In this document: positions 2,653 to 56,675 of the stretch, one piece after another
How the letters are laid out: each line of letters opens with the position of its first letter
How positions within the stretch are numbered: the first letter of the stretch is position 1
From: Escherichia coli
GTDB lineage: Bacteria; Pseudomonadota; Gammaproteobacteria; Enterobacterales; Enterobacteriaceae
Direction: 5' to 3' (one strand)
NCBI RefSeq assembly: GCF_003018255.1
Contig: NZ_CP027440.1
Length of the DNA: 64,000 bases
Made by a program: the position numbers and the translations under genes
The notes under the pieces: model-generated
The model's input: the letters and a program-made list of their open reading frames with translations, nothing else
What the model was told of the DNA's origin: nothing
Database searches by the model: none

Positions 2653-2903
2653 CCCGTAATCTCTGGCGCGTTGCCGATGCGCCGCACATTGTACCGGCTG
2701 ACTCCGTTGAGCGTCAGACGGTACAACGGTTGATTAACGCTTGTCCGGCTGGTCTTTTTTCGCTCACACCGGAAGGTGACTTACGCGTTGATTATCGCGG
2801 CTGCCTGGAGTGTGGCACCTGCCGTTTGCTGTGCGATGAAAAAACACTACAACAGTGGCGCTATCCGCCTTCCGGATTCGGCATCACCTACCGTTTTGGA
2901 TAA
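2643..2903 (+). CDS. ygcO: Ferredoxin-like protein, FixX-like
   Basis: ORF 2607..2903 trimmed to MSVTRNLW; motif CLECGTCRLLC; overlaps the ygcN stop, suggesting translational coupling. Confidence 0.8.
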   Translation: MSVTRNLWRVADAPHIVPADSVERQTVQRLINACPAGLFSLTPEGDLRVDYRGCLECGTCRLLCDEKTLQQWRYPPSGFGITYRFG

Positions 2904-2919
2904 ATAATAAGGATAATTT

Positions 2920-3495
2920 ATGCCCCTCTTACACCTGCTCCGCCAGAATCCGGTGATTGCTGCCGTTAAAGATAATGCCAGCCTGCAACTGGCAATCGAC
3001 TCTGAATGCCAGTTTATTTCCGTGTTGTACGGCAATATCTGCACCATTAGTCAAATCGTTAAAAAGATTAAAAATGCCGGAAAATATGCTTTTATTCATG
3101 TTGATTTGCTGGAAGGCGCGTCAAATAAAGAAGTGGTGATTCAGTTTTTGAAACTGGTGACTGAGGCGGACGGCATTATCAGTACCAAAGCCTCAATGTT
3201 GAAAGCGGCAAGAGCGGAAGGTTTTTTCTGTATTCATCGCCTGTTTATTGTTGATTCGATTTCGTTTCACAACATTGATAAGCAAGTTGCGCAATCGAAT
3301 CCGGATTGTATTGAGATCCTGCCAGGCTGTATGCCTAAAGTGCTGGGCTGGGTGACGGAGAAAATCCGCCAACCGCTGATTGCCGGCGGGCTGGTGTGCG
3401 ATGAAGAAGATGCGCGTAATGCGATTAACGCGGGTGTTGTGGCGCTTTCCACCACGAATACCGGGGTCTGGACGTTAGCGAAAAAATTGCTTTGA
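2920..3495 (+). CDS. ygcP: GlpP-family (glycerol-3-phosphate responsive) antiterminator-like regulator
   Basis: 191-aa ORF with RBS ahead; size and position match K-12 ygcP. Confidence 0.8.
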   Translation: MPLLHLLRQNPVIAAVKDNASLQLAIDSECQFISVLYGNICTISQIVKKIKNAGKYAFIHVDLLEGASNKEVVIQFLKLVTEADGIISTKASMLKAARAEGFFCIHRLFIVDSISFHNIDKQVAQSNPDCIEILPGCMPKVLGWVTEKIRQPLIAGGLVCDEEDARNAINAGVVALSTTNTGVWTLAKKLL

Positions 3496-12097: not shown

Positions 12098-12142
12098 GTG
12101 AGGAAGGCCGGGCGGGAAACTGCCCGGCCTGAACATACCTGA

Positions 12143-12281
12143 ATGGTTATCCCCGCTGACGCGGGGAACATAAGTTCGACAACTTAAAAAATGATAACAA
12201 GTCCGGTTTATCCCCGCTGATGCAGGGAACATAATAAAAACTTTAACTAGTTCGGTTTATCCCTGTTTTTACAAGGAATAT
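12143..12281 (-). CRISPR. Decayed type I-E CRISPR remnant (3 degenerate repeats, 2 spacers)
   Basis: Repeat-like units at about 12143-12171, 12204-12232 and 12253-12281 (for example cggtttatccccgctgatgcagggaacat), progressively diverged from the consensus. Confidence 0.7.
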
Positions 12282-12735
12282 TAACTACACTCGATGTCTT
12301 TAGAATAAAAGACAATACGAATCGTACTTTATCAATTTTCATTTAAAGTATGAACTGGATATCTTTATTCATAAGAACAATTCATCAACAGCGTATAGAG
12401 GCGGTTATGTAAAACCGCTCATTAGCCTCAAAACAAAGACAAATTTCCAGATTTATTACTTAATCAATGAATAACAAGCTTAAAAAATACACTGTAATTC
12501 TAAAGAAAAAATTAACAGGCATTAATTCAATATTAAAAAAATAATAGATTAAAATTTCTTAACGATTTAAGTATCATACAAATAACACTTTGATTAAATT
12601 TAATTTTTTGTATCGATAATTGTGAACTTCTCTGGCATGGAGAACTATTTTGAACATGAGGTGTTACGTGGATATGTTGCTTATTACAAGTACAGCTAAT
12701 ATAAAAACTTGAGAAAGAGATAACGGGTTATATGG

Positions 12736-13069
12736 TGGTTTATCCCCGCAGGCGCGGGGAACTCATAGAGAAAAGAAACGGCAGCTTTGCCACTTCCGGT
12801 TTATCCCCGCTGGCGCGGGGAACTCCGCGTTTCTAATCTCACCGCCACGGCGATCAACGGTTTATCCCCGCTGGCGCGGGGAACTCACCCCTTTAACGTC
12901 ACCAGACCGCTAACGACGCGGTTTATCCCCGCTGGCGCGGGGAACTCGCGTAACCATTTTGATGGCGCTACCGAAATGGCGGTTTATCCCCGCTGGCGCG
13001 GGGAACTCGATCAACGGCCTGGCGGCTGCCTCTGAAATCTCGGTTTATCCCCGCTGGCGCGGGGAACTC
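12736..13069 (-). CRISPR. Type I-E CRISPR array, 6 repeats and 5 spacers of 32 nt
   Basis: 29-nt repeat cggtttatccccgctggcgcggggaactc (reverse complement of the E. coli I-E repeat) at 12736, 12797, 12858, 12919, 12980 and 13041; spacers at 12765-12796, 12826-12857, 12887-12918, 12948-12979 and 13009-13040. Confidence 0.95.
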
Positions 13070-13250
13070 TCTAAACATAACCTATTATTAATTAATGATT
13101 TTTTAAGCCAGTCACAATCTACCAACTTTACAGTATCACACAAACAACACATCCATTATGTTAAAGAGCACTTAATCCATTGATTAAAAAGCTAAATATT
13201 TAAAATAACTCTATACAAACTAAAATCTACCAAACTTCGCCGCAATAATT
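13070..13250 (-). promoter_or_regulatory. AT-rich CRISPR leader on the queE-proximal side of the array
   Basis: Low-GC sequence directly abutting the terminal consensus repeat in crRNA orientation. Confidence 0.6.
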
Positions 13251-13408
13251 TTCACTCCAGCGAAAAATTAACGCCACAGAATTTGTAGAGAATGATAATG
13301 ATTAGTCCGGGATGGGCAAGATGGATGAGTTTTCAGAGGCGACAAACAATATAAATGAGTAGAAGTCTTTACAGGTTCCACCCATTTATAACGCTTATAA
13401 ATGTTTAA

Positions 13409-14080
13409 TCAGGCAATATTTAGATATTTATGTGTTTGCATCGACAAACGCCAATTACGCGCAATGCAGGTTTCAATGCACAAACGTGTGGCATCATCCT
13501 TTTGGCTAATCGGCTGCAGTGCAATGACTCGCGGTTTATCATCGGTCAGCGTTGCCAGTAGTTCATCCAGTGCTTCAATATCACGTACGCGCCCCACTGG
13601 ATGCTTGATTTCGTTGGCTCGCTCCAGTGCCTGTGACAACACTTCATAGCCGCCGCGCATGTTCAGCTTTGGTGATACGGTAACCCAGGTATTCGGTGTG
13701 CAGCGTACCTCATGAGTACCACTGGTTTCAATCTGGCAGCTAAAACCATTCTTTTCGAGCAGATCAGTCAGTGGTAGCAAATCATGAATGCAAGGCTCAC
13801 CACCCGTAATCACCACATGCCGCGCGGTGTATCCCTGGCGACCAATGACAGCCAGCAAGTCTTCACTGCTCGCCGCCCCCCACTTATCACTCTCTTTGGT
13901 CTTCGCCAGAATGCTGAAAAGGGAGACTTCCCGATCCTCAAGCTTTTCCCAGGTGTGTTTGGTGTCGCACCAGGCACAGCCAACCGGGCATCCCTGTAAA
14001 CGAATAAAAATGGCGGGGACGCCGGTAAAGTAACCCTCACCTTGCAGGGTCTGGAACATCTCGTTAATCGGGTACTGCAT
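13409..14080 (-). CDS. queE: 7-carboxy-7-deazaguanine synthase (radical SAM)
   Basis: 223 aa, MQYPINEMFQTLQGEGYFTGVPAIFIRLQGCPVGCAWCDTK with the CxxxCxxC-type radical SAM cluster motif. Confidence 0.9.
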   Translation of the reverse strand: MQYPINEMFQTLQGEGYFTGVPAIFIRLQGCPVGCAWCDTKHTWEKLEDREVSLFSILAKTKESDKWGAASSEDLLAVIGRQGYTARHVVITGGEPCIHDLLPLTDLLEKNGFSCQIETSGTHEVRCTPNTWVTVSPKLNMRGGYEVLSQALERANEIKHPVGRVRDIEALDELLATLTDDKPRVIALQPISQKDDATRLCIETCIARNWRLSMQTHKYLNIA

Positions 14081-14374
14081 AGCATTCTCTGTGAAGTGGA
14101 TAATTGTTAATTATTGCAGATCCTGCCACAACAATCATGTCTTATTAACATTCTGTTACAGGCAGGTTTAAAGAAAAATGAGAAACAGATCGTTAATAAT
14201 AAAAGGGAGTAACGTATTATGTCAGAAATAAATAAAGTAAAGGGATTTAATCATGTCAAAAACATTCACCAAAATTATACTTATTTTTTTCTGTGTTCGT
14301 TTTTAATTATAACGAATCTCAAATTACCGATGCCGCCGTCAATTTATTTATCCAGCTTTAATGGGACATTTATA

Positions 14375-15244
14375 ATGCGCTATTTCATACTAATATTCAC
14401 ATTCGTGTGTTCCTTTGTTGCAGCCCAACCAACTATTGTCCCACAATTACAGCAACAAGTTACGGATCTTACGAGTAGCTTAAACTCACAAGAAAAGAAA
14501 GAACTGACGCGGAAGTTAGAATCTATTTTCAATAATACCCAAGTACAAATTGCTGTATTAATTATTCCCACAACCAAAGACGAGACAATTGAACAATATG
14601 CTACAAGGGTTTTTAACAATTGGCGTTTAGGAGATGCCAAACGCAATGATGGGATACTGATCATTGTTGCCTGGTCGGATCGCACTGTCCGCATCCAGGT
14701 AGGTTATGGGCTGGAAGAAAAGGTAACCGATGCTCTGGCTGGAGATATCATCCGTAGCAACATGATACCCGCATTTAAACAACAAAAATTAGCTAAGGGA
14801 TTAGAGTTAGCTATAATCGCTTTGAATAACCAACTCACTTCACAACACCAATATTCGGCTAATCCTTCAGAAAGTGAATCAGCGTCTTCCAGCGATCATT
14901 ACTACTTTGCTATTTTTTGGGTATTTGCAGTGATGTTCTTCCCTTTCTGGTTTTTTCATCAAGGCAGTAATTTTTGTCGCGCATGTAAAAGCAGTGTCTG
15001 TATTTCAGCAATCTATCTTTTAGATTTATTCCTGTTCTCCGATAAAACTTTTTCCATTGCTGTATTTTCCTTCTTTTTTACTTTCACCATATTTATGGTC
15101 TTTACCTGTTTATGTGTACTTCAGAAAAGAGCATCAGGTAGAAGTTATCATTCAGACAACAGCGGTTCCGCTGGAGGCTCAGGCGGCGGGTTTAGCGGCG
15201 GTGGCGGTTCTTCTGGCGGTGGCGGCGCATCCGGCCGCTGGTAA
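14375..15244 (+). CDS. ygcG: TPM-domain membrane protein with glycine-rich C-terminal tail
   Basis: ORF 14219..15244 trimmed to [19 protein letters not shown] (signal-peptide-like); internal TM segments; tail [26 protein letters not shown]. Confidence 0.75.
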
Positions 15245-15303: not shown

Positions 15304-16617
<1,314 letters not shown>

Positions 16618-27429: not shown

Positions 27430-28770
27430 TCAATGACGGCCGAAAACGGGACGTTTACGGTCAAAGGTCCAGCCGGGGATCAGGTACTGCATCGGGCCTG
27501 CGTCGTTACGCGCACCGCCAGGCAGACGTTTATAGGCCTCATGTGCCTTTTGTACCTGTTCCCAGTCCAGTTCCACGCCCAGACCGGGCGCATCAGGAAC
27601 GGCAATTTTTCCGTTTTTAATCTCCAGCGGATTTTTGGTCAGACGACAATCGCCCTCCTGCCAAATCCAGTGGGTATCGATAGCGGTAGGATTACCCGGT
27701 GCCGCCGCGCCCACATGGGTAAACATCGCCAGAGAGATATCAAAGTGGTTATTAGAATGGCAGCCCCAGGTCAGCCCCCAGTCGTCGCAAAGTTGTGCCA
27801 CGCGGACTGCACCGGAAAGCGTCCAGAAGTGCGGATCGGCAAGTGGAATATCTACCGCATTGAGCATCACCGCATGACCCATTTCGCGCCAGTTGGTGGC
27901 GATCATGTTGGTCGCGACGGGCAAGCCGGTCGCCCGTCGAAACTCCGCCATCACTTCACGACCGGAGAAACCCTGCTCAGCGCCGCACGGGTCTTCCGCA
28001 TAGGTAAGAACATCATTCAGCCCTTTGCACAGAGAAATGGCTTCATCAAGCAGCCAGGCACCATTGGGATCAACGGTAATCCGCGCATCAGGGAAGCGTT
28101 TCTTCAATGCACGAACAGTGTCGATTTCTTGCTCGCCAGGTAACACGCCACCCTTAAGTTTGAAATCTTTAAAGCCATAGCGATCCTGTGAGGCTTCCGC
28201 CAGACGCACAACGGCTTCGCTGTTCATCGCTTTCTGATGCCGCAACTGATACCACTCATGGTTGCCCGGCGTATTTTCCAGATAAGGAAGATCGGTTTTG
28301 GTCCGATCACCGATATAAAACAGATAACCGAGAACGGTAATAGCATCACGTTGCTTGCCTGGCCCTAACAGTTCGCAGACCGGAACATTCAGCGCCTGAC
28401 CTAACAGGTCAAGCAAAGCGGCTTCCAGCGCCGCCACGGCATTAACGCGCAATTCAAAAGTCCAGGCACCTTTGCCGAAGGTATCAAAATCGGCTGCCTG
28501 ATTACCTTTATGCACCTGCTGAACCACTTTATTCAGGCGCGCAACTTCCTGGCCCAGCACCATCGGAATAGCCTCGACCAGTGTTTGATAAATCACCTCT
28601 CCGCCCGGCGCTTCACCAATGCCGGTATGCCCGGCGTTATCGGTGAGTACCACAATATTGCGGGTGAAATATGCGTTATGTGCACCACCAATATTAAGCA
28701 ACATGCTGTCATGTCCGGCGACCGGAATGACTTTCATATCAGTAATAACAGGACTGGATTGTGTCGTCAT
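27430..28770 (-). CDS. gudX: Glucarate dehydratase-related protein
   Basis: 446 aa paralogue of gudD ([31 protein letters not shown]). Confidence 0.93.
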
Positions 28771-55246: not shown

Positions 55247-55323
<77 letters not shown>

Positions 55324-55356: not shown

Positions 55357-55433
<77 letters not shown>

Positions 55434-55466: not shown

Positions 55467-55543
<77 letters not shown>

Positions 55544-55561
55544 ATTTATTAGAATGCTGAC

Positions 55562-55596
55562 AAACCGCAAAGCTACTATTGGCTTGCGGTTTTTTC
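55562..55596 (+). terminator. Rho-independent terminator of the metZWV operon
   Basis: Hairpin aaccgcaaagc...gcttgcggtt followed by tttttt. Confidence 0.7.
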
Positions 55597-56174
55597 GTTT
55601 TTACGCTTCCTTACCCGTTTCAGTGAAGCCTGAGACAATGAGTAAACCGTTAATATCCCTCCATCAAAGCCATCCATCTTATTTATATATTAAACATATA
55701 CCCCATTAATGAATTTTATATATTCTATAAATCAATTTATTTTGGTTATGTTAACATTTCAATATCACAACAGGGCGCTACGCTTATATAATCATTGTAC
55801 AAAAAGCACACAACTTTTTAATTAGTAGAAAAATTAATAATTTTTTGTGAAAGCCCGGACAATAAGTTTAATGAATATCTTAATAGGCTCTCATACTACC
55901 CAATTTCTTAAAAGTGCAAATTTGTGAAGCTTACCCTGTTATTATTTTAAGTTTCATGCCAAATTCTCTCACCAGATAATGCCACCCTCTCCCGAAAAAT
56001 AATCAAGAGGCCAAACAATATCTAAAATGATACAACTGTATCTATTCCCCTGAAAAATACATTATTCATTTGTATATTTTCCTCATCATTGCTTTTTATT
56101 TAAATCATCCGATAATCCCCTGAATATAATTATGTCAATAACCATCAGAAAAAGTGGATGATGAGGAAAAGGAT

Positions 56175-56675
56175 ATGGCCGACAGTTTCCAGAATGAAGT
56201 TCCCGCCGCTCGTGTAAATATCAAGCTTGATCTGCATACAGGCAATGCTAAAAAGAAAGTTGAACTCCCCCTCAAGCTTCTTGCCGTAGGCGATTACAGT
56301 AACGGAAAAGAGCAACGTCCGCTGTCCGAACGGGACAAGGTTGATATCAATAAAAACAACTTCAACAGCGTCATGGCTGAGTTTTCGCCTGCGGTTAATT
56401 TAACAGTAGAAGATACGCTAAACGGAAACGGTAATGAACAAAATATCGCGCTTGAATTTAAAAGCCTGAAGGATTTTGAACCCGAACAGGTAGCAAAAAA
56501 TATTCCGCAACTTCGTGTATTACTCGCTATGCGCAATTTACTACGTGACCTGAAATCCAATCTGCTGGATAACGCAACGTTTCGCCGTGAACTGGAAAAT
56601 ATCCTGAAAGACCCGACGCTCAGTTCAGAACTGCGTGATGAACTGGCGAAAATTGCGCCGCAGGAGAACGTTTAA
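56175..56675 (+). CDS. tssB: Type VI secretion contractile sheath small subunit TssB (VipA)
   Basis: ORF 56154..56675 trimmed to MADSFQNEVPAARVNIKLDLHTGNAKKKVELPLKLLAVGDYS (166 aa), the characteristic TssB N-terminus; RBS aggaaaagga ahead. Confidence 0.9.
   Translation: MADSFQNEVPAARVNIKLDLHTGNAKKKVELPLKLLAVGDYSNGKEQRPLSERDKVDINKNNFNSVMAEFSPAVNLTVEDTLNGNGNEQNIALEFKSLKDFEPEQVAKNIPQLRVLLAMRNLLRDLKSNLLDNATFRRELENILKDPTLSSELRDELAKIAPQENV

Follow-up and report, generated by a model that had tools for sequence, protein, structure and literature searches.

The 631 bp that separate the third initiator tRNA gene of an Escherichia coli metZWV cluster from tssB are very probably the left border and the 5' regulatory region of the PAI-metV T6SS island, which carries the E. 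coli T6SS-1 in a Sci-1-like gene order. This is already a known object, an island edge and a Fur-repressed, H-NS-bound promoter region that have both been described, and the main facts are published. Our analysis adds the exact borders of the island, which follow from an att-type repeat and from empty sites of two kinds, an island-borne terminator of the tRNA operon, and the stronger constraint on the promoter-proximal 175 bp than on the remainder of the region. It also shows that the Dam switch known from the related EAEC promoter is not applicable here. The region controls the switching-on of a weapon, widespread in E. coli, that serves in antibacterial attack and in virulence.

Identity and composition of the region

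All positions refer to the window, the whole 64,000-nucleotide stretch of E. coli contig NZ_CP027440.1 that was analyzed. Three tRNA-Met(CAT) genes were placed by ARAGORN at 55247-55323, 55357-55433, and 55467-55543, and the three copies are identical in sequence to metZ, metW, and metV of K-12. The start of tssB at 56175 was taken from the RefSeq annotation of NZ_AP045067.1, which is 100% identical over the region. The gap between metV and the tssB ATG is exactly 55544-56174, in agreement with an earlier note on this DNA that had described an AT-rich junction of about 630 bp between the third tRNA-fMet copy and tssB. The features of the region are listed below, each with its basis in parentheses.

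55467..55543, + strand: metV, the third initiator tRNA-fMet copy and the integration target of the island (ARAGORN, Rfam, identity to K-12 metV)
55530..55570, no strand: left copy of a 41-nt att-type direct repeat, GGCCCCCGCAACCA + ATTTATTAGAATGCTGACAAACCGCAA (second copy, empty sites)
55562..55602, + strand: island-borne intrinsic terminator of the metZWV operon; hairpin at 55562-55592 plus U-tracts (RNA fold)
55603..55914, no strand: distal AT-rich spacer, the most variable part (six-allele alignment, promoter scans)
55915..56174, + strand: proximal promoter/operator fragment of the tssB operon, the published Fur-binding EMSA probe (primer mapping)
56050..56078, + strand: best predicted sigma70-like candidate in the published fragment, CTGAAA-17-TATATT (consensus and PWM scans)
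56077..56097, + strand: inverted-repeat arm on the upstream side, complementary to the SD region of tssB (repeat search, fold)
56149..56170, + strand: downstream arm of the inverted repeat, including the SD GAGG at 56164-56167 (repeat search, fold)
56151..56174, + strand: last 24 bp before the ATG, the only part shared with the Entomohabitans teleogrylli operon (blastn)
56175..56675, + strand: tssB (vipA), the first gene of the T6SS-1 operon (RefSeq of the identical genome, ORF list)

The GC content of the gap was 31.2%, compared with 51.0% for the whole window. When the sliding-window check that the earlier note had proposed was run, no other 631-bp segment had a lower GC content than the gap, and 12171-12801 (31.4%) was practically level with it. 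TpA steps made up 10.6% of the gap versus 4.5% of the window, a 2.3-fold enrichment that places it in the top 0.25% of windows. The long A/T tracts reported for it proved to be mixed A/T runs of up to 18 nt, and homopolymer runs did not exceed 6 nt. The first ~60 nt consist of the att core and the terminator and are not AT-rich promoter DNA. Other long ORF-free gaps of the window had GC contents of 34 to 37%, so that the value for the tRNA-tssB gap is extreme but not out of family. Two other stretches, 12171-12801 and 14041-14671 (34.9% GC), were nearly as AT-rich, and they lie in or near the ORF-free gaps 12098-13408 and 14081-14218.

The 631-bp region was present as a single copy in 1,337 of 5,426 complete E. 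coli genomes, with no annotated feature in it. The carriers, about one-quarter of the complete genomes, include CFT073, ST131, and Nissle 1917. The E. coli alleles fell into two main groups, ~97 to 100% and ~91 to 93% identical, and a sensitive blastn search against 72,556 plasmids gave no match. The window carries a private 4-bp deletion (TTCA) at 55714/55715 compared with five other aligned E. coli alleles, and it has a T>C change at 55934, under the published T6SS1-F primer site.

As the earlier note had stated, the gap holds no ORF with a convincing ribosome-binding site. The longest is 51 amino acids and overlaps the tRNA terminator, none of the ORFs has an SD, and a Pfam scan of six gap ORFs (21 to 51 amino acids) gave no match at an E value of ≤1. 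A hidden small gene or small RNA in the region is extremely unlikely. It would draw on a predicted distal sigma70-like element, ATCACA-17-TATAAT at 55764-55792, which was the best-scoring match, has a perfect TATAAT, and is invariant in six alleles. However, no terminator-like site follows this match, a scan with the Rfam 15 covariance models (E ≤ 1) returned the three tRNAs and nothing else in the region, and the RefSeq annotations of the genomes listed have no feature there; the short ORFs lacking an SD or a family match weigh against this reading as well. We retain the reading of the gap as the border and control region of the island.

The left border of the island

Upstream of the gap the gene order is csdE, tcdA, mltA, metZWV. 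After metZWV come tssB-tssC-tssK-tssL, an OmpA-family gene, hcp-tssH-vgrG and, farther on, tssM-tssA-PAAR-tssF-G-J-E-VasL, and after VasL a five-gene sugar/PTS module is followed by amiC-argA-recD. In K-12 the metV-amiC spacer is only 73 bp and unrelated in sequence to the gap. Divergence from K-12 begins 3 nt past the last metV base, which places the insertion at the 3' end of the tRNA gene.

The first 60 nt of the gap recurred inside the island in a local blast. The underlying direct repeat of 41 nt consists of the last 14 nt of metV (GGCCCCCGCAACCA) and the next 27 nt (ATTTATTAGAATGCTGACAAACCGCAA). A perfect second copy was found 27 kb farther on, where the T6SS module ends on the right (positions 27469-27509 of the locus extracted from the 100%-identical genome). 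The VasL-domain gene precedes this copy; behind it come a second terminator hairpin, whose loop differs, and the PTS module. No repeat of the tRNA end was found just before amiC, where one had been sought; it sits at the junction of the T6SS and PTS modules. Of the 41 nt, the first 17 (55530-55546) form the core that K-12-type sites also have.

Two kinds of empty site fit these borders. EPEC E2348/69 lacks the T6SS, and its metV is followed directly by the second terminator and the PTS module, an empty site that matches the right repeat copy and its flank. E24377A has the ~91 to 93% allele at the left junction, and its right copy of the tRNA end runs into the K-12 terminator and amiC; thus, K-12 represents the empty site for the E24377A lineage. 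In this type the repeat is 17 nt, GGCCCCCGCAACCAATT, and the 73-bp K-12 spacer is identical to the right flank in E24377A. CFSAN061769, of which the right junction was compared, has the same right junction as E24377A. The comparison with the K-12 metV-amiC junction that the earlier note had suggested thus yielded an exact empty site from which the gap sequence is absent. The horizontal origin that it had proposed is borne out by this absence and by the bracketing of the 27-kb module by a direct repeat of the tRNA 3' end. Neither a GC content like that of the neighboring genes nor the same sequence at the K-12 site, the two findings that the note had set against its own reading, was observed.

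The terminator in the gap (fold energy, -17.3 kcal/mol; z = -2.9) differs from the K-12 metZWV terminator. It is found at the left junction in both lineages, even in that with a K-12-type right junction, and therefore it came with the island. No integrase was annotated among the 33 features between metV and ptrA. Overall, the junctions look like the standard footprint of a tRNA-targeting island whose integrase has been lost, and the repeats suggest site-specific integration. The mobility of the island has probably been lost, because no integrase or excisionase gene is annotated.

The island downstream of metV in UPEC CFT073 has been named PAI-CFT073-metV (PMC2907695, PMC3032704), and "ETSS2" is also used in the literature. 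The metV island comprises two modules, the 27-kb T6SS module bounded by the repeat and a separate PTS/phosphoglycerate-dehydrogenase module of ~5.5 kb; the latter is carried without the T6SS by E2348/69 and by O26 strains. In E24377A and CFSAN061769 a gene for a MucR/Ros-family transcriptional regulator lies just inside the right repeat (15555-16103 and 2727-3275 of the respective extracted loci). This gene, which is absent from the lineage of the window, could encode an island-borne regulator of the AT-rich promoter. The T6SS of E24377A is internally deleted, with tssJ truncated and tssM, tssA, tssF, and tssG missing, and despite this the upstream region is intact in the strain, as are the two junctions of the island.

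Promoter and Fur control

That the gap contains the control region of the T6SS operon, as the earlier note had proposed, is supported by published work on APEC TW-XM. We mapped onto the window the EMSA primers that Ma et al. 2018 (PMC5874247) list for the "T6SS1" promoter in their Table S2. T6SS1-F and T6SS1-R map to 55915 (one mismatch) and 56174 (no mismatch), so that the probe corresponds to the 260 bp of 55915-56174. The negative-control primers of the same study map inside tssB, and its Hcp1 primers match 62020-62499, within hcp. In APEC TW-XM, Fur shifts the T6SS1 promoter fragment, and the shift is lost when two predicted Fur boxes carry point mutations (PMC5874247). The same mutations derepress vipA (tssB) on a plasmid with ~250 bp of native upstream DNA, which drove Fur-regulated expression of the gene (PMC5874247). 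A fur deletion or iron limitation induces hcp1 and clpV1 (PMC5874247), and the T6SS1 of this strain is described as Fur repressed and as induced by iron limitation or serum (PMC5874247). The "T6SS2" of a CpxR paper (PMC6534853) does not correspond to the gap: that paper concerns the hcp2B promoter of the other cluster, T6SS2, and the T6SS2 qPCR primers had no match in the window.

Scans of the region with the 19-mer Fur consensus and with a 7-1-7 model did no better than on shuffled sequence. Inside the probe the best 19-mer matches had 11 to 12 of 19 positions, at 56122-56146, and outside the probe matches of 13 of 19 occurred at 55861 and 55867; both were at the level of shuffles. The positions of the Fur sites therefore cannot be placed from the sequence alone. 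The functional Fur boxes of EAEC sci1 are equally degenerate, with 11 and 13 of 19 consensus positions (PMC3145626), and the best matches in the gap (12 to 13 of 19) are comparable to them.

Promoter prediction, another check named in the earlier note, gave sigma70-like candidates within the published fragment, all of whose hexamers are predictions only. In addition to the best candidate at 56050-56078, these were a predicted TTGCTT-16-GATAAT at 56089-56116 and a perfect TATAAT at 56125-56130, a predicted element that adjoins the best Fur-like match. There was no sigma54 GG-N10-GC on the + strand of 55544-56200, and scanning the entire window for the sigma54 consensus was uninformative (319 matches versus 343 expected).

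Constraint was measured as the proportion of variable columns in an alignment of six E. coli alleles, and it rose toward the gene. Variable columns made up 11 to 17% of 55601-55914, 10.5% of 55915-56000, and 6% of 56001-56100, and they fell to 2.7% in the last 74 bp (56101-56174). Such a gradient is the pattern that a promoter-proximal operator region would be expected to show.

H-NS, StpA, and RfaH

The earlier note had also described the gap as typical of H-NS-silenced promoters. Binding of H-NS and StpA at the tssB end of the island is documented. The CFT073 tssB gene (501 nt) stands in the "H-NS bound gene" sheet 1E of Data set S1 of Hustmyer et al. 2022 (PMC9765446). Its occupancy there, scored per gene and not for the intergenic DNA itself, was 0.32 for H-NS in the wild type and 0.28 for StpA at a cutoff of 0.07, and with a value of 0.17 it was still scored as bound in the hns mutant (PMC9765446). 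In the part of this data set considered here, c3394 and the PTS-module genes c3405-c3407 are listed beside tssB; tssC and tssK are not among the genes of that part, an absence that is suggestive but not firm. The same study found that the c3392-tssH unit is bound proximally by H-NS, is apparently blocked at initiation by H-NS-StpA in the wild type in rich medium, and associates with RfaH only in the hns stpA double mutant (PMC9765446). In the window a perfect ops element, GGCGGTAGCGTG, lies at 62637-62648 on the + strand, between hcp (62014-62505) and tssH, and it corresponds to the "tssH (c3392)" ops site of CFT073 (PMC9765446). No ops-like sequence was found in 55544-56174.

The H-NS part of the earlier claim held with respect to occupancy, since H-NS and StpA occupy tssB in CFT073, but not with respect to the effect of a single mutation: deletion of hns in APEC TW-XM raised expression of the T6SS2 genes but not of clpV1 and hcp1 (PMC5874247). 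Redundancy with StpA would account for this negative result, and silencing of the tssB promoter itself by H-NS is plausible.

A stricter version of this idea, in which the region is a purely H-NS-silenced xenogeneic promoter whose AT-richness recruits H-NS as the main repressor, is possible but doubtful. The 31% GC content and the TpA enrichment would agree with it, as do the occupancy of tssB in the sheet cited above and the proximal binding, apparent initiation block, and hns stpA-dependent RfaH association of the c3392-tssH unit. However, hcp1 and clpV1 did not rise upon deletion of hns, whereas a fur deletion, iron limitation, or mutation of the Fur boxes led to derepression (PMC5874247). 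In addition, a scan of the region for the high-affinity H-NS 10-mer returned only two matches, each with two mismatches. We favor a border and promoter region that is repressed by Fur and bound by H-NS.

An inverted repeat at the tssB Shine-Dalgarno sequence

Positions 56077-56089 and 56158-56170 form a perfect inverted repeat of 13 nt; its second arm covers the SD, and it can be extended to ~20 bp with one bulge. A repeat of this length was reached in 1 of 300 dinucleotide shuffles. One reading of it is a cis-acting 5' leader, in which the ~20-bp helix 56077-56097/56149-56170 would hide the tssB SD in transcripts that start upstream of 56077. Such transcripts would come from a distal promoter or enter the gap by read-through from the tRNA operon, which is strongly transcribed, and those from the proximal promoter would stay translatable. 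RNAs of 126 and 397 nt kept the helix in both their MFE and their centroid folds, and the duplex between the SD and the upstream arm had a z score of -2.15. We nevertheless consider this leader quite unlikely. The observation was made post hoc, and the z score of the overall fold was only -1.76. In the B1 allele an uncompensated C>A change in one arm breaks a G-C pair (fold z = -0.15), and Entomohabitans has the same SD without the partner sequence (z = +0.65). Across 80 sequences, the window and 79 orthologous loci, there was no enrichment of SD pairing (mean z = -0.12). The last part of the gap is best read as the proximal promoter and operator of tssB.

Orthologous T6SS loci

A search for TssB relatives, one genome per species, returned 80 loci, and 79 orthologous loci were compared. 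The ORF-free gap upstream of tssB had a median length of 697 bp, and the GC content of the last 300 bp before tssB was on average 17.7 points below that of the operon (minimum difference, 6.7). Judging from these loci, a long AT-rich upstream tract is a trait of this T6SS subfamily, and its sequence is not conserved. Immediately 5' of the SD, a TTCCTTAAGGAA-type palindrome is seen in several tssB loci of Enterobacter, Klebsiella, and Lelliottia (~2979-2990 of the extracted loci); it may represent a local hairpin or a binding site.

The closest relative was Entomohabitans teleogrylli, whose T6SS operon is 93.9% identical at the DNA level over at least 3.5 kb. Homology breaks off exactly 24 bp before the tssB ATG. 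Of the 631 bp, the last 24 alone are common to both, so that this point marks the start of the operon module proper. Upstream of it E. teleogrylli has an unrelated and equally AT-rich tract of 594 bp that is ORF-free; farther out, ~1.3 kb from tssB, there is an integrase gene (PF12835/PF12834) on the - strand (857-1651 of the extracted locus).

These loci bear on the suggestion that the gap is functionless decayed DNA, a remnant of an integrase or border gene that became AT-rich by mutational decay, with the real promoter confined to the last few dozen base pairs. An integrase would be expected beside the tRNA gene and none is present, the distal half of the gap is its most variable part, and the related Entomohabitans locus has its integrase gene (PF12835) ~1.3 kb upstream of tssB. 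In spite of these points, we regard decay as very unlikely: none of six gap ORFs scanned (21 to 51 amino acids) has a Pfam match at an E value of ≤1, the gap shows no similarity to plasmids, and a long AT-rich, ORF-free tract of nonhomologous sequence is common to the 79 loci, which argues for a selected property and not a local scar.

A further idea is that the AT-rich tract is an exchangeable "silencer cassette" and not a fixed promoter, to which E. coli would have added an anti-SD helix that keeps read-through transcripts of the adjacent, very strongly transcribed tRNA operon untranslated. Its grounds are that all 79 orthologous operons carry a nonhomologous tract and that E. teleogrylli switches tracts 24 bp before the ATG. 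We hold it to be speculative and unlikely.

Proposed working of the region

The preferred reading, that of an island border with a Fur-repressed and H-NS-bound promoter, can be put together as follows. The 27-kb T6SS module lies at the 3' end of metV, and the copies of the tRNA end that bracket it point to site-specific integration. The terminator of the tRNA operon came with the island, and behind it lie ~575 bp of ORF-free DNA with 31% GC. A sigma70 promoter in the last ~125 bp would be blocked by Fe-Fur. The AT-rich tract would nucleate an H-NS/StpA filament that spreads into tssB and forms a second layer of silencing in rich medium, and the distal half of the gap would serve mainly as silencer-binding or spacer DNA. 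The Fur and H-NS experiments on which this draws were made in other strains with near-identical alleles. Overall, the earlier reading of the gap was essentially right, but it had missed Fur, the att-type repeat, and the metZWV terminator.

Comparison with known systems

The EAEC sci1 promoter (Brunet et al. 2011, PMC3145626) shares with the region the T6SS subtype, the location upstream of tssB, and repression by Fur, which in sci1 acts through two degenerate Fur boxes. In contrast, there is no detectable similarity upstream of the ATG, and distant tssB genes (~66% identity) align only from the first codons (codon 5); in a sensitive blastn search the distant E. coli tssB matched only from query positions 629 to 644 onward, which lie in the final few bases ahead of the ATG or within the coding sequence. 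The lack of substantial identity between the T6SS1 and sci1 promoters has also been reported for APEC (PMC5874247). There is no GATC in 55544-56174, and thus the Fur/Dam epigenetic switch of sci1 cannot operate here. The sci1 cluster of EAEC also lies in a different island, at pheU, whereas the cluster in the window is at metV.

Like the H-NS/StpA-silenced, RfaH-counter-silenced loci of CFT073 (PMC9765446), the locus has a tssB that is listed as H-NS bound in CFT073 and an operon ops element upstream of tssH. It differs from the RfaH-counter-silenced loci in that the ops lies 6.4 kb downstream of the region and not within 55544-56174. With islands that are integrated in tRNA genes by a P4-type integrase it has in common the insertion at a tRNA 3' end, a direct repeat containing that end, relatives with an empty site, and an AT-rich border. 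Unlike those islands, the metV T6SS island has no annotated integrase or excisionase gene.

The likeness to PAI-CFT073-metV extends to the insertion site, the TssB protein (WP_001443093.1), and an upstream region that is 98.6% identical. That island, usually drawn at ~32 kb, is a composite of the 27-kb T6SS module and the ~5.5-kb PTS/sugar module. The T6SS1 promoter of APEC TW-XM (PMC5874247) is the same locus, with the EMSA, negative-control, and Hcp1 primers all mapping in the window. The two differ at the strain level only, by the single-nucleotide change under the forward primer and the private 4-bp deletion in the window.
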